Part shown: one piece after another, positions 1-23,183 of the stretch
Layout of the letters: every line of letters begins with the position of its first letter
How positions within the stretch are numbered: the stretch's first letter is position 1
From: Escherichia phage ph0011
Sequence record: OP557969.1
DNA length: 64,000 nucleotides
Reading direction: 5' to 3' (one strand)
Position numbers and translations under genes: made by a program
The notes under the pieces: generated by a model
The model's input: only the letters and a program-made list of their open reading frames with translations
Database searches by the model: none
What the model was told of the DNA's origin: nothing

Positions 1-746
1 GGACGTTTATCAGGAGCACTGTAAGGGAAGCTCAATCTGGAGGTTTGTGATTCAGAGTCGGTTCCGATACGGATATCTTTAAATGTAGCAGTGCTATTAA
101 TACCAGTTACGTTAGCACCAAAAGTTACCGCACCTTTTTGATTAGATGCACCAGTAACATTCAATGTTTCAGCGTTTAAATCAGAAAGATTAAACTCGCC
201 ACCTAGTGTACCACTAATATTCACATCTTGAAACTCAGCAGTGCCAGTACTAGTAATGTCAGTTGCGGTAATAGTTGTAATTTCTGCGGAATTGGAAGTA
301 ATTTTATCAAAAGCAGCGGTTGTACCAACCTCAGCAGATAAGTCCCCTTTAAGTGTTGTTTCTCCCACAACTTCTAAGCTTTTTACTTTAGTTGATTGTA
401 GTGTGGTTGAACCAGCAGTTTGTGAAAAATCACTACCCACCGACACAGTACCGTTAAACGTAGCACTTGAATTGATTGTTACTGTATCAGAACCACCATC
501 TGCACTGCCGATTGTGGTATTTCCAGTAATATCAAGGCCACCACTTAATGTTGCTTTACCACCAACATCTAAAGTAGAGTTGATGATAGCTGTTTCAGTT
601 TCAATAGCAGTAAATGTTGCGTTTGCAAAAGAGATACTACCATCTACTCTTAGGTTATTCTTGATTACTGCATTACCTTTGACTAATAGATCCTTACCAA
701 CTGTTCCAGCACCAGTAATATCTAAGTCAGTTTTTATTGAGTACAT
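1..746 (-). CDS. Tail fiber-like protein, N-terminal 248 aa only (gene continues past window start)
   Basis: Hand translation of the reverse strand from ATG at 744-746 is open to position 1 (MYSIKTDLDITGAGTVGKDLLVKGNAVIKNNLRVDGS...), T/G/S/N-rich beta-repeat composition typical of fibers; RBS GGAGGG 5 nt upstream. Forward ORF 241-798 is its antisense artefact. Confidence 0.6.
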   Translation of the reverse strand, partial: MYSIKTDLDITGAGTVGKDLLVKGNAVIKNNLRVDGSISFANATFTAIETETAIINSTLDVGGKATLSGGLDITGNTTIGSADGGSDTVTINSSATFNGTVSVGSDFSQTAGSTTLQSTKVKSLEVVGETTLKGDLSAEVGTTAAFDKITSNSAEITTITATDITSTGTAEFQDVNISGTLGGEFNLSDLNAETLNVTGASNQKGAVTFGANVTGINSTATFKDIRIGTDSESQTSRLSFPYSAPDKR

Positions 747-862
747 TTATACCCTCCGTTGGAGCCTTGTTAATATGTATATATTTAGTTTAATTTAACT
801 GATATCCAATATTTTATAAAATAAAAAACCAGACTTATTTGAATAAGCCCGGTTTAATTTTA

Positions 863-1759
863 TTACTTACCAGAGATAACAATCTTCCCACTGAATGCAA
901 CATCAGAAGTAAAGATCACGTCACCAGTATTGCTAATTTGTGTATCAGTTATTACCAATTCAAATGGTGAGGATGCAACACTACCAGGTGTTTTATTTGC
1001 ATAAATCGAAACATACAAATTGTCTGGTGATTGTTTGTGTTCAGATGCTGAAATCGTGATGATGAACACATCGTTATTAGAAATCCAATCTGCTTGGTTT
1101 ACTAATTTACTATAAGGTACTGTCATTGTTGTTGCTCCTATAATGTTTACTTTAACATTTGCATAATCTGTAATTTTACCAATTACATCTATTGTGATAT
1201 CACCAGTGCCGCTTACTACTACAGAGGTTTGAAATACGGAATCCAATGTTATACTACCATGAGGATCACCCTGTAGTTGTACCATGATATCAGGACCACG
1301 CCCATGTACAGATGCTGGAAGGGTGTATGTGTAATGGTCGGTAGTATCTGAAACTAATGTAAATGAAGATACTGGTATAGTTTCAGTTGTTACATATGGA
1401 CTATCAGTTTCATGTGAACTACCTTTGAATGATTTCCAAATACCAAGATCTTTAATATAAATTTGAAGAACATTAGTTTCATCAACTAAAAAATACAAAT
1501 CACCATCTAACCCAATAGTTTCATCCGGTGCACTGGTTCCACGCAAAATACCAGAACTCCCACCACTATGTGCGTTTAGATATCCTAACGTAACCAGGTG
1601 TGTGTCAGCGGTCGGTTCACCTGCTGAAATTGGAAGAAGTTTTGTTCCTGAGTAGTTTTGTATTTGCACAACACTACCATTTGTGGTAATCTGTGCACCA
1701 TTCTTCCCAAGAATGAAGGACTTCTTCATGGTTCCTTCTAAATTAGAAAAAACTGCCAT
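863..1759 (-). CDS. Tail fiber / receptor-binding protein (298 aa) with conserved N-terminal anchor domain
   Basis: ATG at 1757-1759, RBS AAGGAGA; first ~110 aa (MAVFSNLEGTMKKSFILGKNGA...) paralogous to N-terminus of adjacent 713-aa ORF; C-terminus divergent. Confidence 0.6.
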   Translation of the reverse strand: MAVFSNLEGTMKKSFILGKNGAQITTNGSVVQIQNYSGTKLLPISAGEPTADTHLVTLGYLNAHSGGSSGILRGTSAPDETIGLDGDLYFLVDETNVLQIYIKDLGIWKSFKGSSHETDSPYVTTETIPVSSFTLVSDTTDHYTYTLPASVHGRGPDIMVQLQGDPHGSITLDSVFQTSVVVSGTGDITIDVIGKITDYANVKVNIIGATTMTVPYSKLVNQADWISNNDVFIITISASEHKQSPDNLYVSIYANKTPGSVASSPFELVITDTQISNTGDVIFTSDVAFSGKIVISGK

Positions 1760-1775
1760 TTTAATTTAATCTCCT

Positions 1776-3917
1776 TTATGGTAGGGTTATGTACGTTACT
1801 GGTTGGGCGGCTTTTAATGATGCACCAGCGGCAGTTGCTGTTATGATGGGATCTGCAATATCAATTCTATATACGTTATTAACAACATATACTGCACGAG
1901 TTATATACGTTTTCAAATCATCACCATTTTCTCCAGCACCAGATATGATGATCTCAGTTCCCGCCGCTTTTGCATATTGGTTATCACCCCATGACACACC
2001 CAATGCTTCTATGTACGTTTGTCCTACTACCGTTTGTCTAATTGTGTCATATTTTCCAAAAAATGAACCACCCACTGTTACAATATATTTTCCACCTGAT
2101 TTTTTATGTATAATCGTTCCTTCTGGGAAGTATCTTCCACCAGGGAAAGTATCATATGGAATATAATATTGTTCAACTACAGGTATTAGAACTGGGCCAC
2201 GATGACCAGTACCGTCAATAGCAGTTGTTACTTTAAAATTATTAGATGATTGGTCGATTCTATCTACGTACATTTTAGAAAAACTATATTTTGAAACATT
2301 ACAATCATCTTGAACAACACAGTTAGTCCAATTAGTATAAGTATATTTAGAGCGAGTATACATTCCCCCACCCTCACCTTCAGTGGAAAGGTGTTGTCCT
2401 ATTACATCTAATTCTTTTGTTCTGATATCACTAAACTTAGATGAAGATGGTAGACCACGCCAAAGAATTTTAGAACAAGTGATATTACTTAATTCTGTAC
2501 TATTCAGCCAATTATCAGAACCAGAAGTATAAACGAATACGGAAGACTCTGGTATATAGAGATTGGAAATTTTAAAGTTTCTAGGTGGTCCAGCAAATCG
2601 ACCAGCAGTTACCCCCCAGTTAATAGATACCATACGGTTTGTGATTGTAGGATCATTAAGTAAATGTCCGGTTAAACCATCAATTACAAACTCTTTTGAG
2701 CCATAAGTTATCACACCAGCAGTTGTTAATCCAGTACCAACTGAAATTAGAGATGATGGATACACTTCGTTATCAAGTATTTTAAAGTCCATTCCCAATT
2801 CAACATGGATACATTGTCTAACATTATAAATTCTATTGTTCTTAATAACAAAGTTTCTAACGTATTGGGTATCAGGTGCATCCAGACCATAAGGACCAGA
2901 ACCCGCAACACCAATACCGATACCCCAGTTTGAAAGTGGGATTGGTGCATCTGAACCATCAACGTTTTCAATGATATTACCTTCGATTACAAAACCATCA
3001 GGATAATGTGAGTTAATAACGTTTAATTCTATTGCATCACCATATATATCATGAATATGGTTGTAAGAATAACGCCCCACTTTCATTTTCTCACCAGTTC
3101 CTTGCTGAAGAACGCCATATTTACATTTGGTCATTTCATTAAAGCAAAAATCTATTGTTCCTGGTTGGGTCATACCTTGCATCAAAAACGCGGCAGTACT
3201 GGTAATGTTTACAAATTTATTAAAATAAAATTTACCATCCCCACCAAAGAATTTCAAATAACATCCAGTAAGTGTGGTGAATTGAATTTGTGAATTAATA
3301 ACGGATATCATAGTACCACCATTACCAGTAATAGTGCCACCAAACCAAGTTACATCTTCCAAATATACTGCTTTTTTGATACGATAATTACCACCTGCTT
3401 GAATTTGTATTTTATTTTCTTTGGCATAAGTTGCACACAAATTTACAGCTTCAGTGTCATCGGTTTCCCCATCTCCTTTCGCACCAAATTCTTCTGGTGT
3501 TATATAGAACTGTGCTTGTTGAACTGTGCCACCAGTAATAAGGCCAATGAAATCACCACCATTTTTACTTGATAGTACTTTTTTATTAATGTATAGTGAT
3601 TTAATCCATGTGCCATTTGTTTTTACGAAAATATCAACAATACCATCTTCATCAATTTGAAAATAAGTGTTATTGTTTTTTCCAATATCACCAGACGGTG
3701 GTTGAACGCCAAATAAGGCATTTGGATTATCTTCAAGGTATCTAACATTAACTGCTGAATCTTGGTCTGATGGTGTTCCTATCTTTAGTGGTAGAAACTT
3801 TTCACCGAGATAATCTTTTATCGATACGGAATCATTGACGAAATTTATCGAAGCACCATTTTTACCCAATATCATTTTTGGTTTCATGGTTCCTTCAAAA
3901 TTAGAAAATACTGCCAT
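1776..3917 (-). CDS. Tail fiber / tailspike-like protein (713 aa), possible beta-helix depolymerase-type C-terminal part
   Basis: ATG 3915-3917 with RBS AAGGGGGTG; N-terminus MAVFSNFEGTMKPKMILGKNGA shares domain with 863-1759; long G/N/T-rich body. Confidence 0.55.
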   Translation of the reverse strand: MAVFSNFEGTMKPKMILGKNGASINFVNDSVSIKDYLGEKFLPLKIGTPSDQDSAVNVRYLEDNPNALFGVQPPSGDIGKNNNTYFQIDEDGIVDIFVKTNGTWIKSLYINKKVLSSKNGGDFIGLITGGTVQQAQFYITPEEFGAKGDGETDDTEAVNLCATYAKENKIQIQAGGNYRIKKAVYLEDVTWFGGTITGNGGTMISVINSQIQFTTLTGCYLKFFGGDGKFYFNKFVNITSTAAFLMQGMTQPGTIDFCFNEMTKCKYGVLQQGTGEKMKVGRYSYNHIHDIYGDAIELNVINSHYPDGFVIEGNIIENVDGSDAPIPLSNWGIGIGVAGSGPYGLDAPDTQYVRNFVIKNNRIYNVRQCIHVELGMDFKILDNEVYPSSLISVGTGLTTAGVITYGSKEFVIDGLTGHLLNDPTITNRMVSINWGVTAGRFAGPPRNFKISNLYIPESSVFVYTSGSDNWLNSTELSNITCSKILWRGLPSSSKFSDIRTKELDVIGQHLSTEGEGGGMYTRSKYTYTNWTNCVVQDDCNVSKYSFSKMYVDRIDQSSNNFKVTTAIDGTGHRGPVLIPVVEQYYIPYDTFPGGRYFPEGTIIHKKSGGKYIVTVGGSFFGKYDTIRQTVVGQTYIEALGVSWGDNQYAKAAGTEIIISGAGENGDDLKTYITRAVYVVNNVYRIDIADPIITATAAGASLKAAQPVTYITLP

Positions 3918-3929
3918 TGTGACACCCCC

Positions 3930-5057
3930 TTAAATATTATCTTGAATAGGTTGGACCGGAGCTTGCCACGAAAGAGTACAAATAATTTCCATTTTACCAT
4001 AAGGACTGTTATTAACTGAATCATTGAATACACATGAAATAATTTCATCTACATCTGAAACTTCATGATTTGTTTCATTGACGATAAAACGCATCTGGTT
4101 ATTAATATCAAAGTAGGTTGTTGGTGCAATTACGGTTCCACCAATATTCTCGTTTGCTTCACCACCAAATCGAACAAACATATCAGTTACTGGTTGTGAA
4201 TAAGGTTGTAAAACATTTACATCTATATTAGAAACTACATATCCAGAAGGACAAGTCCCAATAACTAATAGAGCATTAGTCCATGATCTATCAATAACGT
4301 TTCTAATTGTTACAGTATCTTTGCCTGGTGCACCCGGTTCACCTTGCTTACCTTGAATACCTTGTGGACCTTCTTTACCACGGAATAAAATACCACTACT
4401 CCATTCTTTTGATGGTGGGGTGGTAGTTGTTACTTCATCCACATAATAAAGCTTACCATCAGTGTTGTTATAGAAACAATAATCAATTGGGAGGTTTTCA
4501 ATACTTGGAAATTGATCACCACTATCGTCAATATGAAAACGACCACGTGGACCTTGCTCACCACGGAAAGGAATACCATCACTCCATGTAGCTGTTACTT
4601 TTTGATAAAAATATAGTTTACCATCTTGTGTATTGTAAAATGTATAGTTATCAAAAAGACCAGAACTTGGAAAAGTAGTTCCTGCACTATCGATATGAAA
4701 AGGCTTACCAGCTTCACCAGTATCACCTTTACCAAATTCAACACTAGTCCAAGTACTGGTTTCTTCTTGTGCATCATTTGATTTAAAATACAGAGTACTT
4801 GTGTTATTTGCCAAACTAAGATAGCACCAGCCAAGCGGTTCACCAACTTTAAATTTATCAGATGGAACTTCAAAACCAATCTCATTAGGATAAAAGTTTT
4901 TACCGTTCTGACCATTTTGTCCCACAACAAGACCGAGATCTTGAATTGTATTATCTGTATATGTTACAATTAAATGACCAGCATTATTAATAACTAGACT
5001 TTTGATGCCTGAGTTATTACATGAACCACTGGACCCATTGTTAAATGTAATTGTCAT
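3930..5057 (-). CDS. Tail fiber protein with collagen-like Gly-X-Y segments and ~50-aa tandem repeats (375 aa)
   Basis: ATG 5055-5057, RBS AAAGGGAAA; GEQGPRG and GKEGPQGIQGKQGEPGAPGKD triplet runs; three repeats of the pattern DGKLYF...W..G.PFRG.QGP.G.FHIDD.G..FPS. Confidence 0.6.
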   Translation of the reverse strand: MTITFNNGSSGSCNNSGIKSLVINNAGHLIVTYTDNTIQDLGLVVGQNGQNGKNFYPNEIGFEVPSDKFKVGEPLGWCYLSLANNTSTLYFKSNDAQEETSTWTSVEFGKGDTGEAGKPFHIDSAGTTFPSSGLFDNYTFYNTQDGKLYFYQKVTATWSDGIPFRGEQGPRGRFHIDDSGDQFPSIENLPIDYCFYNNTDGKLYYVDEVTTTTPPSKEWSSGILFRGKEGPQGIQGKQGEPGAPGKDTVTIRNVIDRSWTNALLVIGTCPSGYVVSNIDVNVLQPYSQPVTDMFVRFGGEANENIGGTVIAPTTYFDINNQMRFIVNETNHEVSDVDEIISCVFNDSVNNSPYGKMEIICTLSWQAPVQPIQDNI

Positions 5058-9241: not shown

Positions 9242-10731
9242 TCTGTGTCCTTATGTATACGATAAGCTGTATTTGGTTTAACTGCGTCATGTAATGGAAC
9301 TTTATTATCACTATTTACGAACTTAGTAAGTGCTAAATCTGCACCTTCCCACGGTTTTCTACCACCGTAATCAAAAATAACCCATGAATTCTTAGTTGCA
9401 TTGAATTCCCACAGTGTAACTGGTGTATAATCAGTACGGTAAAAGTAATCACCATCAACTGCATCAGTAGGGAACATGTTTCCTTCTGGAACTGTACCTC
9501 TTGCTGGTGGGATTTTAGGGCGATAATCCTGTTGTGCATCAATATTTCCATATACACAACTTGATGTGAATGGGTCATTGACGTAAGTTACTTTTGGTTC
9601 GCCCCATTTACCATCATTGTACTGAAAAATGTGTGGTTCTTTATAAAAAATACAAAAATCTTCAATATCTTTTGGTGGATTTTCACTGGTCGTGTATTCA
9701 ACATCACAATTTAACCATTTTTTAACACTTTTATCGTACTGGTATAGTGTATACCCAGTTACATCTACATCATTCTCTTTAAAGAAGAAATCACCATCCA
9801 TAGGTTTCTTAGGAAAAACGGTTCCACGCTTGACTTCCAGTGAAATCCATGTATCATTATCGTATTCTTTAAGTATTGGGTATGTTTTTTTCAAAAAATA
9901 CATACCACTTGCAGGTTCTTCGGGGAAATCATATCCATTAAGCATATACTTTGACAAATCAACAGTATCACGACGGTCATCATACAAATGCTCGTTGGTA
10001 TAATGAATATAAGGCACTTCATCATCAGCTTGCATAATGATACGATTCATAATATCCATTTCATTACTATAGTTACTGTTATCAGATGTACCATCATCAG
10101 TGTTACCATTACCATTATTTGGATCATTTGGGTTATCAGGGTAATTGTTGTTTCCTAGTAAGTCGGAGTACTCAGGAGAGTCAGTCAATGGCTTTACTCG
10201 AAGTTTATAAATGTGATGTTGCCAAGTAACAGAGTAACCTTCTGCTGTACGAAACGCATCTTGGACCACATAGAAGCGATTCAGACCAGAATCTTTACCA
10301 AGAACATCATAATCACGTAAATTTGGTAGTTCAATTACATCACCAGGCATGATTTTTCTACCCAATCGTTGCATCATGGTATTGTAGTGGATTGTAATGT
10401 CCATCGTGTTGAAATTAAAGAACAAACCTGGAATTTTCAAGTCAGGTGTTGCTTCTTGAACTTGATAGACACAACTTAGTGTGATTGCTTCAAGATTATA
10501 GTTTCTATTTGGGGTGTCTCCAAAAATTAAATCACCAATACTTGACACAACCGATCCAGAAGATGTATAATCACCGCCATATGATAAGTCTTTGTTATCT
10601 GCAACTTGTTTTGGGCCGACATAAGCGTAAAGCCACATGTCAACACCACCAATGTTGTATTGTTCAGCAATGGCAGAGTCAATGAACTTGTAATCATTGG
10701 TTCTACCTTTTTTCCACATTCTATATGTCAT
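9238..10731 (-). CDS. Hypothetical structural protein (neck gp13/gp14-like by position, 497 aa)
   Basis: ORF-track start at 10743 is TTG; ATG at 10729-10731 (MTYRMWKKG...) has RBS GGAGA 5 nt upstream, so start moved. Internal repeats DGDYFYRTDY / DGDFFFKENDVDVTGY. Confidence 0.45.
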   Translation of the reverse strand: MTYRMWKKGRTNDYKFIDSAIAEQYNIGGVDMWLYAYVGPKQVADNKDLSYGGDYTSSGSVVSSIGDLIFGDTPNRNYNLEAITLSCVYQVQEATPDLKIPGLFFNFNTMDITIHYNTMMQRLGRKIMPGDVIELPNLRDYDVLGKDSGLNRFYVVQDAFRTAEGYSVTWQHHIYKLRVKPLTDSPEYSDLLGNNNYPDNPNDPNNGNGNTDDGTSDNSNYSNEMDIMNRIIMQADDEVPYIHYTNEHLYDDRRDTVDLSKYMLNGYDFPEEPASGMYFLKKTYPILKEYDNDTWISLEVKRGTVFPKKPMDGDFFFKENDVDVTGYTLYQYDKSVKKWLNCDVEYTTSENPPKDIEDFCIFYKEPHIFQYNDGKWGEPKVTYVNDPFTSSCVYGNIDAQQDYRPKIPPARGTVPEGNMFPTDAVDGDYFYRTDYTPVTLWEFNATKNSWVIFDYGGRKPWEGADLALTKFVNSDNKVPLHDAVKPNTAYRIHKDTE

Positions 10732-10773
10732 ATTTGTCTCCAAAATAATTCGGGTATATCTTTATTTACCATG

Positions 10774-10801
10774 TAGACAAACCATAAGAATGTGATATAA
10801 T
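10774..10801 (+). promoter_or_regulatory. Sigma70-type promoter with extended -10 (TAGACA-N16-TGaTATAAT) upstream of the ClpA-like gene
   Basis: Hexamers read directly; ~40 nt upstream of ATG 10840, which has RBS GGAGA. Confidence 0.5.
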
Positions 10802-10839
10802 GTTTGTTAATTAGAGTGACGTGAATCACAGGAGAATAC

Positions 10840-13128
10840 ATGAATCTTACTCAATTGTTCAAAAAAAGCGACGAACTAGCAACATCCCTAGGTCATACTT
10901 TCTTGACTATTGACCATGTGAGTGCTACAGTACTGACTATTGATAGTATCAAGGGCGTGTTCGAAGAAATGAACATCGATGCTGACAAATTGCATAGTCG
11001 ACTGATGAACTATCTTAAAAATACAACGGTTCCAAGTGCACCAAAAAGTACACTCGATGAAGATGCTAATCGCACTTCACTTCTGGTGAACCGTGTTGTA
11101 CATGAGCTTTCGAAAAAATCAGTCATTGAACAACTAAAAAGTGATGATTTTTCGATTGATGCATATTTTGTTCTATTTGAATGTTTATCATTCCCAAACA
11201 CTGCACTTGAAGCTGCTTTGAAAGAAGAAGGCGTTAGCTGTACCGAAGCTGCTCGTGCACTACAGAAACACGTTGAGGCACTGGAAAAGGGTATCAACCT
11301 TCAAAGTATCAATGACGAACCTACTGGAGATAAAAAAGTGGCTCAACCACAGCAATCATCTAAACAAAAAGGTTTAGCAGACTATACAACAAACCTAACG
11401 GCACTTGCAAAAGAAGGCAAACTAGACCCAATGATTGGTCGCCAAAAAGAGCTATCTGCATTGATTGAGACTCTTGCTCGCAAAACCAAAAAGAATGCCA
11501 TCCTGACTGGTGAAGCTGGTGTTGGTAAAACACAAATCATCGACGGTCTTGCACAAGCAATTGCTGATGGTAATGTACCAGAGCACTTAAAAGATGTTGA
11601 AATTCTTTCCCTAAATGTTGGTGCGTTGACTGCTGGGACTAAGTATCGTGGTGAATTTGAGGAACGTATCGATAATTTACTAAAAGAACTAAAGAAACGT
11701 GAAAACACAATTGTTTTCATTGATGAAATCCATATTATGGTCGGAGCAGGTTCTGCAAGCAACGGTTCAATGGACATGAGCAATATGCTTAAACCAGCAC
11801 TATCACGTGGTGAGATTCGTGTAATTGGTGCAACAACATACGAAGAATATCGTAAAAACATCGAGAAAGATAGTGCATTGACTCGTCGTTTTATGAAAAT
11901 TGATGTTGTTGAACCGTCAATCGATGAAACTCGTGAAATTGTGAACGGTCTTAAATCAACTTATGAAAAATTCCATAACGTTGAGTTTACAAAAGATGCA
12001 ATGGATGCAGTAATTTCTCTCAGTGAGAAGTTCTTGAAAAATAAACACTTCCCAGATAAAGCAATTGACCTAATGGATGCTGCTGCTGCGAAAGTGCGTT
12101 CACGTGATAATAATAGTAAACTAATTACAGAGAATTTGATTCAAGAAGTTGTTGCTGGTATTGCTAACTTGGATATCAACGTGGTTGCATGTACAGAAAG
12201 TGAACGTATGCGTAATCTACCAGATGCACTACGTTCACGTGTTTACGGACAAGAAGAAGCGATTCAAAAATTGGTTGATAATGTAATGGTTGCTCGTGCT
12301 GGTCTACGTGATAAGTCGAGTGTTCAGGGTGCTTTTATGTTTGTTGGTCCGTCAGGTACTGGTAAAACAGAAATTACAAAAGCATTAGCTGAAGCAACGG
12401 GTTCAGAGCTTGTTCGTTTTGATATGTCTGAGTTTTCTCAAGAACATACTGTTTCAAAACTAATTGGTTCCCCTCCAGGTTATGTTGGTCACGATTCTGG
12501 TAATGGTTTGCTATTGGATAAGATTGAGCAGTTTCCTAATGCCATTCTACTACTCGATGAAATCGAGAAAGCAGATCGTAAAGTACTACTAACCTTCCTA
12601 CAGGTTCTGGACGAAGGACGTTTGACTGGCTCACAAGGTAAAACTGTTTACTTCAATAACGTAACTGTTATTATGACAACCAACCTTGGTGCGGCTGATT
12701 CAACAAAGCGTAGTATTGGGATGAGTGGTAGTGAAAGTGCACAAGACAAGGCAATTAAAGCATTCTTACCACCAGAATTCATTAACCGTATTGACAGTAT
12801 TGTTACGTTTAATGAACTAAGTAGTGAAGCAATTGACAGTATCATTGATAAATTCATGGGAAGTTTGAATGAACAAGTTAAACATCGCAACGTAAAAGTT
12901 TCACTAACGAAAGCTGCACGTGGATGGCTTGCAAAAAATGGTGTTCAGGTAGGTATGGGTGCACGACCAATGAAACGTACAATTGAACAAAACATTCGCG
13001 TACCACTAGCGAAGGAAATGTTGTGTGGTTCACTGGTAAATGGTGGTAACATTACATTTGATGTTATCAATGACAAACTTGGTATTAAACCAAAACGTAC
13101 TAAAGCAGTTGAAAAAACACTAGCTTAA
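10840..13128 (+). CDS. ClpA/ClpB-family AAA+ unfoldase (two-ATPase-domain Hsp100, 762 aa)
   Basis: D1 Walker A GEAGVGKT and Walker B IVFIDEIH; D2 Walker A GPSGTGKTE and Walker B LLLDEIEKA; GYVGHDSGNGLL; SIGM tripeptide loop where ClpA carries its ClpP-docking IGL loop; ClpA-like length. Confidence 0.9.
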   Translation: MNLTQLFKKSDELATSLGHTFLTIDHVSATVLTIDSIKGVFEEMNIDADKLHSRLMNYLKNTTVPSAPKSTLDEDANRTSLLVNRVVHELSKKSVIEQLKSDDFSIDAYFVLFECLSFPNTALEAALKEEGVSCTEAARALQKHVEALEKGINLQSINDEPTGDKKVAQPQQSSKQKGLADYTTNLTALAKEGKLDPMIGRQKELSALIETLARKTKKNAILTGEAGVGKTQIIDGLAQAIADGNVPEHLKDVEILSLNVGALTAGTKYRGEFEERIDNLLKELKKRENTIVFIDEIHIMVGAGSASNGSMDMSNMLKPALSRGEIRVIGATTYEEYRKNIEKDSALTRRFMKIDVVEPSIDETREIVNGLKSTYEKFHNVEFTKDAMDAVISLSEKFLKNKHFPDKAIDLMDAAAAKVRSRDNNSKLITENLIQEVVAGIANLDINVVACTESERMRNLPDALRSRVYGQEEAIQKLVDNVMVARAGLRDKSSVQGAFMFVGPSGTGKTEITKALAEATGSELVRFDMSEFSQEHTVSKLIGSPPGYVGHDSGNGLLLDKIEQFPNAILLLDEIEKADRKVLLTFLQVLDEGRLTGSQGKTVYFNNVTVIMTTNLGAADSTKRSIGMSGSESAQDKAIKAFLPPEFINRIDSIVTFNELSSEAIDSIIDKFMGSLNEQVKHRNVKVSLTKAARGWLAKNGVQVGMGARPMKRTIEQNIRVPLAKEMLCGSLVNGGNITFDVINDKLGIKPKRTKAVEKTLA

Positions 13129-13163: not shown

Positions 13164-16100
13164 TTACTTAACTATTAATATTTTTTGAATATCATTACCA
13201 CGAACTCGTAGACTGTTAGTATACACAGAAAGGTCTATTGTATAACTATTTTGAGTATAACGTTTAAACTTATCATAACCGCCCAAATTAATTCCGTTGA
13301 AAGAATATGTAGTATCATGTTTGAAATCGTGTTCTGCACTGTACATTACTCCACGGAGTAAGTTGTTTGTATTTCTAACTTCAACTTTTTCATATCCAAT
13401 CGATATAATGTCACTCTTGTTAGCAGCGGAGCCTGATAACACATTATTTCTAACATTATAATGGCTTACGGAAAGAGGTTGTGCTACATAAGTTGTGTTT
13501 TCTTCACTAATGGTTGTTATGTTAGTGATGGTAGCGTCAGCCACATCAATATACATACTATCAACCATTGGATATTCATACACCCACACACCTTCATTAT
13601 TTTTTGTCGGTTTGATATCTTTCGCATCATATTCAATCACGTTAATTTCTAAACAATCCGGCATTTTAGTTCTTACTAATTCACTAAGAACACCTTCCCC
13701 TGTAATTGGTAGATTATAACCGTTGTCTATAGTAATACCATCATCATTAAATATTTCATTTGATACAACCCAAACATCAACATCATCAGGTGTTACTCCG
13801 TCATTATACTTACCACCATTTAAAGTAGTATCATAAAAAACGTCATAATTAATCACATCAATGGTGTAATTTCTGTTTTGCTCATATAATTTAATATCAC
13901 CCTTGGTAAATTCTGGGTCAGCAAATGTTCTAACACGAACAATGTTCAATGCAAGATGTTGTACTGGCTGATTCAGTTGTCCAAGTGTGATGTTATCATA
14001 TCGAAGAACATTACCAGAACTATCAACCAACTCAATCGTTTCTTTTCCTGTAGTTCTTACAGTGAATAGAATAGGAGTTGTATTATGTTTGATATTAGAC
14101 ACACGTAATATGGTTTCCCATGTACGATTTTGATATCGAATAAAATCTTCACCATCCGGTGTGAAAATCATCACCTTATCACCATCAGATAAGTCACTGT
14201 CAACGATTTCAGCCTCAGTTAAGCTATTAATAGAACGTACACGATAGAAATATTTTTCTTCAAACGGTGATGCCGTTTTATTAATATCATGTTCAATCTT
14301 AGCATATGAAGGAATACTAACAATTGCTTCTGTATGTTTATATGGGTTGATAATTGCCATACCCTCGGTTTTATATCTGCTATTATTACGCAATTGCACT
14401 AGTGATTCAGTATCAAATCCATAACCATCAACAGTGAATCTAATATGCCCAACTGCACGACTAGCTGGATTTATTTCAGATATATCGATAATATAAGGAT
14501 CAACTTCATCATCTTTAACTTCCCATTTGATAGCTGAAGTTTGTGATTCTAATGCAAGGTTGTCAAATGCATTCATATCATTGAAGAACTTAGCTTCAGC
14601 AATACTATCAATTATATATTGATAATCCGAATACATAGGGTTATTTTGATCTTGTGGTAAATCATCTAGATTTATTTCAGCAAGTTTAATCATTTCACCA
14701 TTAGTAATGAAATAATCTTCCATGAAATCATCAATACTTTTATCATCTGGTATACTTTGGTATTCACCATTGATATTTAAGTAGACATGTTTTCTTGGCA
14801 TCATAGTAATAGCATAGATATCAATAGGTGTTTTTGAAAGAATTTCTTCTGCTTTTTCATACATATCAGCAGAGTCTTTATCAAACAACCCTCTCATGGC
14901 TGCCAGTACATGGACCGCATCGGAATAGAAACGTGTATCACCACCAATTTCATCATAACGATAAACATATACACCGTATTCAACTTCAAGTTTCACTTTA
15001 ATATCATGTTCAGATGCATCTGGATATTTTTCTGTAATAAAAGAAATATATTTTTCATATAATTCTTTACTTATTTCAAAATATCCATAGTTATAATCAT
15101 TACTTGAAGAAAAACCTAATGGTAGTCTAGTACTTGGGTTATCATTATAAACCAAACCACTAAATCCACAGCCAACCTCATCATGAATCTTATCATCACT
15201 GATATCTTTATAAAGTTTCAAACGGTTTGCTAATGTATTGTACTGAACATAGTGTCGAAGGTCAGTAAACATTTCATTATGCGTTGATTCGTTATAAATG
15301 CGTTCAAGTGTAGCAGTAAATTCATCAGTTGCTTCTAAATCATCAGCATGTTCTTTATACCACTGGTTTACACCATTTGCAGTTCCTAGTGTTACATCTA
15401 ATTCTGGATAGTACGTTTGTAATAGATACGCATTAACCAAGTCAAATGATTGTTCATTATACACAGGGTAAGAATATATATAACGTTGTAATTCATAGGT
15501 ATTAACAGAATCTTTTTCATTTGATTGATACTTATTATTAACACTAATCAACTCATTAATGTTTGCCAAATCTTTATTCGGTTTACATTGAATATTATCA
15601 TAATGCATAATAATATCAATTTCTTGAAATCTTCTATTTGGTGCAATAAAATCACTAGGCAGAGAACCTACTTTCTCCCATTTTTTAGTGGTTTCATTAT
15701 ATTGAGCGTACTCATAATCCCAAATATCCTTTTCAGTTTTAACCCACGAACCATCAACAAAAATATACCCATTAGGATCTAAATCATTACAAAGACCTTT
15801 GATTAAGTCATCATCAGACGTTTTTTGTTCTATCTGTGAACGGATTTTTGTACGATATGGTTTCACCTCTTCAAAGTACTCAACAATTTGGTTAATCAAA
15901 TTATCATTTGAATAGTTTTGTACCAAAGATTGTTCCAAACCAACAATATAGATATAGGATGTTTTAAATACCCAATCAACAACACCCTGTTCTACGTGTA
16001 CATATTTGACCATATCAAAAACAATTTCACTTTGGTGTAAATCGAAAGAATTTTTTAGCAAAGCAAGTGCTTTTCTAATATTAATTTCACGATTACTAAG

Positions 16101-19100
16101 TGAACCGTCCTCATTATGAACATTATAATCTACATAAAACAAATCGTTAAGCTCAATAGTACTACGTTGTCGCCCAATAGCTTTCCAATAAATTGAATCA
16201 CGTGATTGAGATTTGATATATAAAGTCCAAATGTTTTCACTATCTGTGACTCTAATTATATCACCAACTTGATAGTTTTTAGCATTTGCTTCTTCTAAAC
16301 TTATCTCTTGGATGTAAGCAGTTTTGCTATCATACCCAACATCATACCAATCTGCATAAGACCAGTATTGAGTCATATCTAATGATGTTCCGAGTGATTC
16401 AACATAATCCGATTGCTTAATCATTTTATGTTGTCCTTCACCTTTATTTTCTAAAGTTATAGTAACAACACTACCTGCATTAGCTGGACTATTCATTAAC
16501 TGAATATATCCGTTTTCATCGAAGTGAATAAAATAAACAGCACTAGTTGATAATGGAGTCGGTAGATAACCGCTAGAACTTAAAATAACAGCGTCATTTT
16601 CTTTAAATTTATCCTTTTCAACTGCAATTACAAGTTCATTATTATAAGTTAATACACGGAACGAAACCTCATTAGGGTTAACTTCTGTAGTTTTAACATT
16701 AAACACATCTTCCATAACAACACTATTAGTAGTTATGTTTTGTGATCTATAATAATTATTTGCACTTTCTACAAAGTTTCTACGTGCCTCTATTATATTC
16801 TGGAACCAAGTTTTATTAGAGCCTAAACCAGTGTCAACTTCTGGATATAATAAATCTACAACCTTACCTGACTTCGTAGTTTCTTGACCAATTAGAGAGT
16901 TCCACATAGAGTCCCAAATTAGTGGGTTAAAGTTGTAACTTTCACCCTCTTTGCAAAGTTGATATTGGTCATGTTTAACAACTTCTGTATTGTCCATATA
17001 GTAAGAAATAGTCAAAACACTAGTATCATCATTAACTTCAAACTGCATATTACTAAGAATAAAAGAGTTTTCATTAATTGGTGCGAACCAAGGAATGTTC
17101 AACTGTGATGGATCTTTAATAATACGTGCAATGTCAGTACATGATTTTGTTCTGGTATGAATAGGTGGTACATAAATTGTATCACGTACCCAGAAATAGT
17201 ATTTTGTTACATAACTGTCAGTGGAGCTATCATATTCCAAAAATGTACTATAATTATCTTCAAGTGCTGTTCCACTTGGAAGATACATATTATTATTTTT
17301 GTTTTTCTTAGCAACATCTTTACAGTACTTATCCCAGTTATATGGTTCTACTGGTGAACAAACCCATTCCAACACATCAATAGTACTATGTGGCAACAAA
17401 CGACCCCAGTTGTAACGTTTATATTCATTGGTTGCGTCAATATCAACATTTCCATCTGCATCATAAATGGCACGAGTATAATCCAAATAAAAAGCGGTGC
17501 TAGTGTTCCACCATACTTGACCAACTTTTTCAGCACCCCACGCCTGAACCAATTCGCCATTGCTATTATATTGAGCAGGGTCGATTGGTGAAGTATATGT
17601 TACGTTTTGCATTGCTGCACCAGGAATAACACCATTAATTGGGTCATAAACATTTAGATATAATGCAGTAATGTTTGTACGTTCATCATATGTAGTTGGA
17701 CGTTCAAACAAAGTACTTTGTGGTGCTTTAAAACTATATTTTTTATCAATATATGCTTGACGCTCTTCAGTACTCACAAAACGCGAAACATAACGATACA
17801 AACGAGGGCGTGTATCTGGGTCAGTAAATTCGATATTAATTGAAGTATCAAATGGAACCACCATAACTTTGGAATCATCCCCAGCAGTATAATATTGACT
17901 TTCTACTGTTAAAGTATCTGGCATAAAGTTAGTTTCGTCCACAAAATAATAGTAATCACCATCTTCAAGAGGGATATCATCAGATAGAGTTACTTTACAG
18001 AATTTCTCAGCGTAAACATCTGTGGTTTCGATTGGTGTAATAGAAACCATTTTAACATTAGTGTCAATTAATTCAAAAATGTTCCATAACCCATTTCCAT
18101 CTTTGAACATCCATACTGATTCAGGATTTTCACCTTTACCATTGATATACAACATACGGTCATTGAATGCAGTACTGAAATCTTTCGTAGTATAAGATAC
18201 TTCATCTAATGTAACTGGACCAATATCAGGCAGTTGGATGTGTTCACTTCTACCACTACGCATTGGGAAAGAGAATTTACCATTTGGACGAGTAATCCAT
18301 TGTGGGTCTTTTCCTTGTTCACCAAAGAATACAATATTGTTTCCATTACCATTTGATGTTGCATTTTCATCAAAAGACATCATTTGTGGCTGCTGCTTAA
18401 ATTGGTCATTAATCAATTTAAATTGAAGGTTTTTCTTTCCATCGATGTTACCATATGTACCAACTTTAAACGCCCATTCTTGTAATGCTTTATATTCATC
18501 AGTATCATAGGATTTAGAAACACGAAGAACACGTTCTAAAACTTGGTTTGTACCTTTGTCATGAATAAATCCTTTATAGAAATCAACACGACTTACATCA
18601 CTACTAATCATACGTTGTAGATAATCACGAGATTGATAACCAATCAAATGGCTAGACAATTCTTGTAATTGTACATCGCTAACGGGATGTTCATTGTCAT
18701 AGTAATGTTGAAAATCTGTTACTAGAGTTTCAAATGATGGTATTGTACCAGATTCCAAAATAATAAAACCAGGTGCTTGTAATCTACCAGTCCATGAACC
18801 AGTAATGTACCCATACATTTTAATTAGTTCCTGGATAGAACCATAAGTTGGTTGATAGATATAATCACCAAAAATAGTCTTATCATCAAATATAACAGCA
18901 TGTTCATATGAACACAAACTTAAGCGGATTAATGCAATACGCTTATTAGAATCGGTTGTTCTAACAGTGAATATATTACCAATACGTGAAGTTTCGATTT
19001 CATATTGACGAATACCTTGGTTATTATCATCAAGCAATGACCACACACCACCATTATTTTGTGTAATAGACTGTACTGAACCAAAATCCGAACCAAACTT

Positions 19101-22100
19101 AGCATTTGCAGCACTTGGTGTACAAGAGATAAATTCGCCAGTTACCAGAGGACTCTGACTCCATATCACAAAATCTTTAGCAATAGTGTGCCAATCTTGC
19201 TGAATACCATCTTGATTAACATCTTCGAAAATCCAGCCATGTTCTTTAAGATACTCACCATATCCACAAATAAAAGTGTATACTTCTTGATAACTATTGA
19301 AAATAGTCCCATATTCAATAGAAGCCTCAGACTTCCATTCATTATAATGAACAATATTACGGTTTTCCAATTTAAGAGTTACTTTTCTTCCATTTTTTAC
19401 TGGAAGTTTATATTTAAATTTCGCACCAACCAAATCATATCCATCAATTTGATATGCACTACCATTCCATGTAATTTTGATGGCACTCATCTGTTCATCG
19501 CGAATGTTATTCGAACGCACCAGACCAATCGTTTGGTTTTCTTGTGAAATAAGACCAAATGATTTAGCGTTGAATGTTAATTGATCTGCTTTAGTAAAGC
19601 CACCAATTTTATGTCCCACATTTACGTAAGACGAACGTACAACATCTCCATATTTTGTAGTAATATTTTTATTTTGATACATCAAATAATCACTAACAAA
19701 CATTTGATATCCAATTGTTCTTGTGTTATCTTCACCATGAACAGTTGTGTTTTTATCAAAATTCACACGATTGCGGGTATCCCCGTACAGAAATTGTTCA
19801 CCAGTGGTGATAATTTCTTTCAAATTGTCATTACGGGTATCCCAATAATAGTTGGCAAATTGTGCAGGTTTAGCTTTATACAAAAGTAACATTTGGTCAT
19901 ATGCAAACAATGTGGTGTTCATATACGTAAATTCCATATCACCCATGTCGCCATACGCCCAAGGTTCTGCTCGGTGAACTAAAGATCCAGACACTAATCC
20001 TAAAACTTCAGGAGCAATATACTCAACCACACAAATATCTACACCGGATGATGTTTTATTTCCAGTTTTAGTAATTTTAAATGGTTGTACACCAAATCTT
20101 TTATATTTGTCATACTGACCACGGCGGTCGCCATATAAAATTGTCCCAGTACTACTATCGCCGATTGTATCATTTACATCCCAAAGTCCACTAGGAACCA
20201 AATCACCTTGTTCATCAGTTACAAGTGCCTCATATACATAAACTACATCACCATCACGTTCACCAACTTGGACAGCGGTTGGTTCATACTCTTGGTTCCA
20301 CCAAGTAGGACGTTGTGTAAACCCAAACATTTCCCATGGATGTGTAGCAGGGCGATATGTACCATATTGATCAGTATAGATTGCACGCCATGAACCACGA
20401 GCAGGAATTTCAGTACTTTTACCATCAACAACATAATAGGTTCCAGTATAGTTCCATGTTCTCCAGTTATTAGGATCATAATCATGTGTACTATTACTAA
20501 TACCATTAGATGCAGTGAAGTTAATATAACCACGTAATAGAAGTGTTTGTTTTTCTTCTGCACTATATTCAGTTTTTGTAAAATATGGTGTAGGGAAAAG
20601 ATCATCACTATTCAATACAGGGACATAATCAACATCTTTGAATTTATTGTCAATACTATTGAAAATTCTATTTTCAAGTTCATATACAACATCATCCATT
20701 TTATCAACACCATTGATAACACGGTATGCTTTAGAAATAATACCAGTATGGCTGATATTATAATAGCTAGGTTTACTACCAGCAGTTAGGAATGTTGCTT
20801 TCTCAGGAACGTATGCTTGTAGAATACCTAAAAACTGTGGAGTTGGTGGTATAAATGCACGAATAAGACCAGATGTACTACCCACATTGTCATAATAGAA
20901 TGGGAATGAACTATCACGACCCATATTAATAGTTGCCAAAATAGAATCAACGATGTTAGCTGCACTATTTTGTAAAAAGTTAGTTGGGTTTTCATTGTAC
21001 ATTCTAAGCATTTGTGTATTAAATTTATTAATGAATCTGAAATATTCAGATTGCATAAACATAGTTGCTTCAAATAAATCAATATCTTCATTTGCAGTAT
21101 GAGCCATCAATGGGAGCATAGAAGCTTCATTTTGAATAATTTTAGTTCCTACTCCATTATTCACTAATCCCTTAGCTAAACGTTCTTCATAATCGTTGAA
21201 GTCATCAGCATAACCACTAGTGATATTCTGTTGAATAATATCCTGAAAATGAAGAGTATAGTCTCCTTGATTAATATATATAATATTGGAGTTATATGGG
21301 TTATTTTGTAAGTTAATTGGAACTTCATATGCACCTAATTCTTTATCAGGTGTTACAGTACTGCTATAAGTTCTAATTTGAATAACAGAATCATCATCCA
21401 ATTCAACACTGTTATCGATTGTGATACTTTGCACTTGACCTTTTAATACATTCTTGGTATATTTGGAGATATTAACACCATCAACAACAACTTCAATAAT
21501 ATCAGAGTCATTGTCTAAAACTTTTTGTGCCAATTCAAAAGTATGGTCATATTTTAAAACCTGAATACCATCACCACTAATTTGATGCCAGTCCAAATAT
21601 GTTTCACGTTCAGCTTTATAGTACTGATATGTTTTATCAACTTCGATGACATATGCATACATACCCTCGACTGGTTCTTTAAACAGTTCCATATCATAAA
21701 CAGAACTAAAGACTCGATACATATCAGTACGTTTGACTTGAGGTGTCTGTTTTACAAATTGTTTAGAGAATTCTTTTGAACGCACCCAATCAGTTTGAAG
21801 ATTCATTTTATTATTTTCATCAATGATGTTATAATAATACAAACCACCGATTTCAACTTCAACACCAAGATGGTCATATGTATAACGTTGTGATTGTAAA
21901 AAGTTTTCATAAGTGTAATAGTTATAATCACCAAGTTCAATGTTATACCCATATACACTATCAGCCGCGTAGTTATAGTTGATTTTAAATCCAAATAATG
22001 GTGAACCTTTAAATGTACTGGATGGGTACGTGGTGCTGTTATCTAGTTTGATTCCATTACGATCATAAAGTTGGAATTGAGGAAAGACGTTAACACTTGG

Positions 22101-23165: not shown

Positions 23166-23183
23166 TTGATTTATTTATTAGAT

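Follow-up and report, generated by a model that had tools for sequence, protein, structure and literature searches.

A tail-gene block of an Asteriusvirus jumbo coliphage in which two homologous N-terminal domains precede a predicted colanidase and a conserved Ig-like virion protein

We analysed two adjacent genes at the beginning of a 64,000-nucleotide stretch of the genome of Escherichia phage ph0011 (OP557969.1; the whole stretch is called the window below). They encode proteins of 713 and 298 amino acids (aa) which start with homologous domains of about 110 residues, called N-domains here, and differ entirely after them. We consider it likely that both genes belong to a conserved tail-gene operon in which the two N-domains act as virion-attachment adaptors, and that the payload of the 713-aa protein, a predicted colanic-acid-degrading enzyme (colanidase), was added in the lineage of the 121Q-like phages. 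An earlier annotation made from the letters of the DNA (the sequence-only reading) had instead seen alternative receptor-binding modules in the two proteins, within a series of four fibre genes that would confer a broad or switchable host range.

The window belongs to an Asteriusvirus, a 121Q/PBECO4-like (Rak2-like) jumbo coliphage. Its first 6 kb match Asteriusvirus phages over their full length, the closest being UE-S1 with 92.6% identity, followed by 121Q, PBECO4, phAPEC6 and others at about 87%. The open reading frames (ORFs) of the 298-aa and 713-aa proteins had been placed correctly at 863-1759 and 1776-3917, but they lie on the minus strand, as do all four genes considered here, and are read from 1759 to 863 and from 3917 to 1776, respectively.

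Homology of the two N-terminal domains

The 298-aa and 713-aa proteins were compared using BLASTP, with E-values calculated under composition-based statistics. A single significant segment was obtained, pairing aa 1-108 of the former with aa 1-104 of the latter, with 44 identities over 108 positions (41%) and an E-value of 4e-21. The local alignment score of the two N-domains was 203, against 27.6 +/- 4.9 in 2000 shuffles (z 35.7). Since the z value was still 20.4 after removal of the first 22 residues, the similarity reflects homology rather than composition, as the proposed alignment of the two N-termini had been meant to establish. The C-terminal parts aligned at a z value of 0.6 against shuffles, in agreement with the complete divergence that had been reported for them. 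The description of the shared domain of about 110 residues as near-identical applies to its first 22 residues only, of which 18 are identical, the remainder of the domain being about 30% identical. No third copy of the N-domain was found within the window.

At the DNA level, the 5' ends of the two genes share a stretch of 36 nucleotides (1725-1760 and 3883-3918) with 94% identity, and the ribosome-binding regions upstream of it differ. Recent gene conversion was considered for this stretch and rejected: the orthologues of other genera use the same codons, and that of phage CBB is identical over 11 codons. The likeness is probably explained by amino-acid conservation together with a shared codon bias.

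The two types of N-domain were then followed among phages. Between phages, the 298-aa type of N-domain shows 54-92% identity, and comparing the colanidase type with any domain of the 298-aa type gives 35-42%. Restricting the comparison to 121Q-like phages, identities are 58-85% for the colanidase type, which diverges faster, and 75-92% for the 298-aa type. Over aa 23-66, the colanidase is 30% identical to its neighbour and 41% identical to the corresponding region of a tailspike from an uncultured contig, and a recent tandem duplication of the neighbouring copy is therefore not demonstrated. The colanidase copy may derive either from an old duplication or from an acquisition.

Two N-domain sites were found only in 121Q-like phages, the other Rak2-like genera, including coliphage EJP2, having one. 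The same two-gene pair is present in every 121Q-like genome examined, and the module swapping between relatives that the sequence-only reading had led one to expect was not observed among these genomes.

The 713-aa protein combines a Rak2-type N-domain with a phi92-type enzyme body

The 713-aa protein (78 kDa; 1776-3917, minus strand) is the counterpart of 121Q gp573, annotated as 'colanic acid-degrading', and of PBECO4 gp547. Its body, from aa ~101 to 713 (1776-3617), is made of a neck, a right-handed beta-helix and a C-terminal domain. Using phmmer, aa 101-712 were matched to residues 16-623 of phi92 gp150 (PDB 6E0V) with an E-value of 4.1e-237, and the body was assigned to PHROG 6117 'colanic acid degradation' with an E-value of 4e-260. 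A precomputed match to PF27800 (WcaM) is available for the UE-S1 orthologue. The same enzyme body was retrieved in 255 phage records covering many genera.

With BLASTP, the alignment to an 804-aa phi92-like gp150 starts at aa 189 of that protein and at aa 96 of ours, and displays 56.6% identity over 617 aa. The phi92-type N-terminus (gp150 aa 1-188) gave no alignment before aa 96, and its identity to the N-domain is 16-27%. Because homology begins at these two positions, the 713-aa protein is, as judged from its sequence, a chimera in which a phi92 gp150-type body follows a Rak2-type N-domain (aa 1 to about 100), with a junction around aa 96-108.

The PBECO4 orthologue has the same N-domain, and its body is 95.5% identical. 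Recombinant PBECO4 gp547 reportedly removes the capsule. On the basis of the identity to the PBECO4 body, the 713-aa protein is predicted to hydrolyse colanic acid. PBECO4 gp547 is cited as the enzyme whose degradation of colanic acid was the subject of Kim et al. 2015. For phi92 gp150, colanic acid degradation by cleavage of the beta-1,4 bond between glucose and fucose has been described (PMC13450770, citing Xu et al. 2025).

Conservation along the colanidase gene was compared with 121Q, WPEC5, Turkey5 and A4. The N-domain is less conserved than the body, with identities to 121Q of 83% and 95%, respectively. The corresponding values are 63% and 86-89% for Turkey5, and 46% and 63-68% for A4. 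The neighbouring 298-aa gene exhibits the reverse, its N-domain being the better conserved part.

Two other forms of the protein were encountered. Phage JP4 (L014 3001-3606) and an independent E. coli assembly (P0069) encode a 201-aa version, an in-frame fusion of residues 1-151 of the 121Q protein to its residues 660-713. The N-domain and the last ~50 residues are kept and the entire beta-helix body is lost, so that these are natural 'adaptor-only' mutants. In Cronobacter phage GAP32 (NC_019401.1), one N-domain gene occupies the syntenic site, and a distantly related colanidase-like protein (27% identity) is encoded away from that site, at 70669-72294. Related jumbo phages may thus carry a colanidase on another scaffold.

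The 298-aa protein is conserved over its whole length

The 298-aa protein (31.7 kDa; 863-1759, minus strand) is made of the N-domain followed by two tandem Ig-like (immunoglobulin-like) beta-sandwich domains, at aa ~118-210 and 211-298 (863-1408, stop codon included). It corresponds to 121Q gp572, annotated as 'structural protein', and to CBB_227, and is a member of PHROG 10468 (E-value 1.9e-84 over aa 1-298). An AlphaFold2 model of the full-length monomer, with a predicted local distance difference test (pLDDT) score of 78, displays the two Ig-like domains. Residues 1-10 have a pLDDT below 50, a low confidence that is expected for a partner-dependent segment. Sequence searches of the PDB with the protein and with its family profile returned nothing useful.

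Among the 68 homologues detected in a large protein collection, 66 are full-length (284-309 aa, 100% coverage) and 40-94% identical to the 298-aa protein, and the remaining two, of 203 and 166 aa, are shorter and match in part. Full-length proteins were found in Rak2-like phages of Escherichia, Salmonella, Cronobacter, Erwinia, Yersinia, Serratia, Pectobacterium and Xanthomonas. Using tblastn, one gene of this type was detected in Rak2-like phages of Klebsiella, Salmonella, Erwinia, Yersinia, Serratia, Cronobacter, Pectobacterium and Xanthomonas. It is always located between the gene of a 375-aa protein and a long fibre gene, as verified by synteny in 121Q, CBB, EJP2 and RaK2. At this position, RaK2 (ORF061w, L002 8001-8348), K64-1 and other Alcyoneusvirus phages encode the N-domain only, as a stand-alone 115-aa protein which in RaK2 and K64-1 is 58-60% identical to ours.

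The whole protein, C-terminus included, is conserved at 40-94% identity across host genera, and a host-specific binder would not normally stay conserved over its full length in this way. The 298-aa protein is therefore unlike a receptor binder, and its designation as an alternative receptor-binding module was not retained. In CBB virions, the orthologue CBB_227 was detected by mass spectrometry together with CBB_228 and CBB_226.

Anatomy and spread of the N-terminal module

A word-indexed search with the 130 N-terminal residues of the colanidase retrieved 7 candidates and 1 hit. We used instead an index-free search, in which a profile built from both N-domains was compared with 1.84 billion representative proteins, and obtained 147 hits. 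The hits fall into two groups. Those matching profile positions 1-66 define an N-terminal module (N-module), found at the extreme N-terminus in nearly all cases and followed by very different bodies. Those matching positions 67-110 correspond to an internal repeat, present in 4 to 14 copies per protein in many long fibre-like proteins and often next to collagen repeats.

Both elements were located in the two proteins of the window. In the colanidase, the N-module covers aa 1-66 (3720-3917), including the conserved peptide MAVFSNFEGTMKPKMILGKNGA, and the second half of the domain, aa 67-108 (3594-3719), is made of one fibre repeat of about 40 residues. A hidden Markov model (HMM) of the N-module (s-type) matched the colanidase at aa 1-63 with an E-value of 1e-19 (5-67 in ORF coordinates, the ATG being residue 5), and an HMM of the repeat matched aa 66-104 with an E-value of 4e-10 (ORF coordinates 70-108). 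In the 298-aa protein, the N-module covers aa 1-66 (1562-1759), and the fibre-repeat half covers aa 67-112 (1424-1561). Calculated on 44 homologues of the 298-aa protein, the mean pairwise identity was 84% for aa 1-22 and 43-60% for the other segments. The conserved N-terminal peptide, of about 24 residues, can be written MA[IV]F.N[LF].GT....[FI].[LI]GK.G.

The proteins bearing the N-module are diverse. Two spikes with the same N-module are encoded by an uncultured large phage on Logan contig SRR18476386_53 (119.9 kb; L009): a 780-aa protein with a beta-helix and a Peptidase_S74 chaperone (10001-12343) and a 705-aa beta-helix protein (18571-20688). They are separated by two paralogous proteins of about 900 aa, and both have a precomputed match to Pfam PF27114 'Phage_tail_beta'. 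The N-module was also identified in fibres of 1200-1370 aa with BNR propellers and, in metagenomic sequences, in stand-alone forms (~113-115 aa) and in forms with one Ig-like domain (~200 aa). Scanning IMG/VR, we found it almost exclusively on Rak2-like contigs of 350-370 kb, and a 684-aa spike headed by it was also retrieved. Two IMG/VR proteins of 1424 and 280 aa (L034, L035) keep only the first ~24 residues, directly followed by the fibre repeat. Among deposited phages, only the Rak2-like jumbo group has the N-module, apart from one weak match in Salicola phage SCTP-2. The modular character attributed to the N-domain was thus confirmed both by its exchange for the ~188-aa N-terminus of the phi92-like protein and by the presence of its first ~66 residues on very different spikes and fibres of large phage contigs.

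Proposed function and alternative explanations

Transcription of the region proceeds from the 375-aa gene to the 713-aa gene, the 298-aa gene, a terminator-like hairpin and the long fibre gene. As the intergenic gaps are 12 nucleotides between the 375-aa and 713-aa genes and 16 nucleotides between the 713-aa and 298-aa genes, these three genes probably form one transcription unit. The block from 5057 to 863 on the minus strand would be a conserved tail-gene operon, two products of which carry the homologous adaptors. Each adaptor would consist of the conserved peptide of ~24 residues within a beta module of ~66 residues, followed by one fibre repeat of ~40 residues, and would anchor its payload in a conserved socket of the baseplate or of the fibre apparatus. 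The fibre repeat may nucleate trimerisation. The ancestral, conserved payload would be the pair of Ig-like domains in the 298-aa protein, which plausibly serves as a weak general adhesin or as a decoration. A second payload, the phi92 gp150-type colanidase body, would have been joined to the adaptor around residue 100 in the 121Q-like lineage. The virion would gain an enzyme able to cut the colanic-acid slime capsule of E. coli, for instance that of mucoid phage-resistant mutants. Both proteins are probably produced together and constitutively, because their genes lie in one tightly packed block. A capsule-penetrating function would have been added, rather than the host range switched.

We also propose, more tentatively, that the first ~24 residues and the ~66-residue module form a universal 'plug' of the Rak2-like supergroup, which would fit one conserved tail socket and carry many payloads, the forms of 113-115 aa in Alcyoneusvirus being caps. 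The payloads counted under this proposal are the colanidase, other beta-helix depolymerases, BNR-propeller fibres and Ig domains. If it holds, the plug would provide a defined, portable handle for engineering payloads onto jumbo-phage tails, and its fold would be one not yet seen among phage anchor domains.

Several points weigh against the adaptor interpretation. No conserved partner gene was found to co-occur with N-module genes in the two distant contigs examined. The trimerisation role, which the repeat may have, was drawn from weak fold matches. The JP4-type deletions suggest that at least some hosts can be infected without the enzyme. In the 121Q-like phages themselves, both proteins are presumed virion components. 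Lastly, in the mass-spectrometry table of phAPEC6 virions, the fibre protein gp256 and gp253, the counterpart of the 375-aa protein (65.6% coverage), are listed and the two genes between them are not. In the phAPEC6 sequence (MK817115.1), the 713-aa and 298-aa ORFs are intact (L013 3584-5725 and 5742-6638), with no coding sequence (CDS) annotated between gp253 and gp256. Both proteins may have been outside the search database, since these intact ORFs are missing from the GenBank feature table. In the mass-spectrometry study of RaK2, gp062 was undetected and gp061 is unmentioned in the paper.

Other explanations were examined in the light of the same data. The two proteins could be alternative receptor-binding proteins competing for the same virion site and giving a broad or switchable host range, as the sequence-only reading had it. 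The homology of the N-domains, almost identical over their first 22 residues, would suit such a competition, as would the two different beta-helix spikes sharing an N-module on the uncultured contig, and a broadening of host range in this manner does occur in multi-spike jumbo phages, for example RaK2 and phiKp24. The C-terminus of the 298-aa protein is, however, conserved across phages of at least seven host genera, unlike a specificity determinant, and colanic acid forms a common slime layer and is not a receptor specific to particular strains. The gene pair is invariant within the genus. We found no inversion or switching element: the search for a switching device returned no long inverted repeats, the pair was unchanged across the 121Q-like genomes examined, and the three genes are tightly packed. 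Moreover, with N-domains only about 30% identical past residue 22 and a faster-evolving colanidase copy, distinct sockets fit the data as well as a shared one. We consider a competition of this kind unlikely.

A second explanation is that the shared domain serves mainly as a folding or trimerisation nucleus (a 'head' domain), attachment being achieved elsewhere in the proteins or via a separate adaptor protein. We regard it as improbable. Attachment by the N-domain itself is favoured by its position, which is where tailspikes carry their particle-binding domain, by its exact substitution for the N-terminus of the phi92 type, by its persistence on its own in RaK2, by its place at the head of many unrelated payloads and by its extreme N-terminus being the most constrained part.

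Third, the 298-aa protein could itself be the socket, the colanidase docking onto it by a heterotypic contact between N-domains. This would explain how a second copy was added without a new site, and it agrees with the adjacency and probable co-transcription of the two genes and with the restriction of the colanidase to genomes that also have the 298-aa gene. Against it, distant contigs carry N-module spikes without a gene of the 298-aa type in the flanks that were fetched, and the colanidase N-module (aa 23-66) is at least as close to the modules of distant spikes as to that of its neighbour, with the identities of 41% and 30% given above. A socket role of the 298-aa protein is accordingly very doubtful in our view. 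Finally, a compositional or chance resemblance of the N-termini is refuted by the BLASTP and shuffling scores and by the pairing of the two genes in every 121Q-like genome.

Flanking genes

Upstream in the transcription direction, a 375-aa (41 kDa) protein is encoded at 3930-5057 on the minus strand. It is assigned to PHROG 13565 'tail protein' with an E-value of 8e-217 and corresponds to 121Q gp574, phAPEC6 gp253, CBB_228 and RaK2 ORF062. This is the collagen-like fibre of the sequence-only reading, but its G-X-Y runs are short: they were located at aa 46-54, 111-119, 166-174 and 227-247, the longest being of 7 triplets, and the Pfam Collagen model scored 17.2 bits, below its cut-off of 27.2. 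A sequence search of the PDB with this protein gave no useful match. Motifs of the type 'DGKLY...W', noticed by eye, raised the question of whether it also contains the shared fibre repeat. The family HMM returned an E-value of 8.5 and this candidate was left as unsupported.

At the other end, a terminator-like hairpin at 855-826 on the minus strand, with a stem of 13 base pairs followed by a T-run, closes the three-gene block and separates the 298-aa gene from the long tail fibre gene. The latter starts with an ATG at 746 and leaves the window after 248 codons (1-746, minus strand). The sequence-only reading was right to see a fibre gene here, but the gene is located downstream of the pair in the transcription direction and not upstream. 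This 5' part belongs to PHROG 4549 'tail fiber protein' (E-value 2e-52), and the complete gene, of about 1830 aa, is the counterpart of 121Q gp571 (1841 aa, 'long tail fiber proximal subunit') and of phAPEC6 gp256. Mass spectrometry identified this fibre protein in the virions of phAPEC6 and of CBB. All four consecutive genes thus have tail, fibre or virion-protein assignments, in line with the series initially described. In Klebsiella jumbo phages, the downstream long fibre gene is replaced by an unrelated ORF of 510 aa.

A few kb from the block, the minus strand of the window contains an ORF of 3336 codons from stop to stop (13167-23174). Judging from its position in the syntenic region, without a direct alignment, it seems to correspond to the 'hypothetical protein' of about 3320 aa 121Q gp582.

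Comparison with known systems

The colanidase is an enzyme of a known, characterised kind whose orthologue has been studied, and the 298-aa protein belongs to a known family of virion proteins. The sharing of an N-terminal anchor between tail proteins is textbook knowledge, and the general picture of tail-protein modularity is unchanged by our results. It has also been described already that, within one genus, a depolymerase can share its N-terminus with a protein that is no depolymerase. We found no earlier description of this adaptor family, of its two-part anatomy or of its payload-free form.

A close likeness is with phi92 gp150 (PDB 6E0V/6E0W), since residues ~96-713 of the colanidase are homologous along the entire gp150-type body. 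The phi92-type protein differs by its unrelated N-terminus of ~188 aa, suited to a 150-kb myovirus, in place of which the Rak2-type adaptor is found here. PBECO4 gp547 is a direct orthologue with the same N-domain.

The combination of a conserved N-terminal assembly region with different C-terminal payloads resembles that of CBA120 TSP1-4, RaK2 gp526-534, phiKp24 and the KP32-type RBP2, and the adaptor interpretation matches the plug-and-play principle recognised in CBA120, RaK2, phiKp24 and Klebsiella phages generally. The head of the CBA120/RaK2 type (D1 fold, an alpha-helix with a six-stranded beta-sandwich) and the T4 gp10-like XD domains were both looked for in the N-domain and were not found. 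No candidate emerged for a primary fibre protein with docking (branching) domains, the PDB sequence searches with the 375-aa protein and with the 298-aa family profile having given nothing. The short conserved N-terminal peptide shared by different bodies recalls the KP32-type conserved docking peptide, as a functional analogy. Ig-like accessory domains are known on phage virions as Hoc-type decorations.

The 298-aa protein shows no substantive difference from the PHROG 10468 / CBB_227 / GAP32_221 family, to which it belongs over its full length and with which it shares the syntenic position. This analysis allows two annotations to be corrected, 'colanic acid biosynthesis protein' and 'hypothetical protein', and the missing CDSs of phAPEC6 to be supplied. 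The adaptor being delimited into a docking peptide, a 66-aa module and a fibre repeat, a candidate boundary is available for payload swaps on Asteriusvirus tails. What distinguishes the 121Q-like phages from the other PHROG 10468 loci is the insertion, just upstream, of the colanidase gene with its paralogous N-domain. It points to where and how a 121Q-like jumbo coliphage would have acquired a capsule-cutting enzyme, by the joining near residue 100 of an adaptor to a body common to many smaller coliphages.

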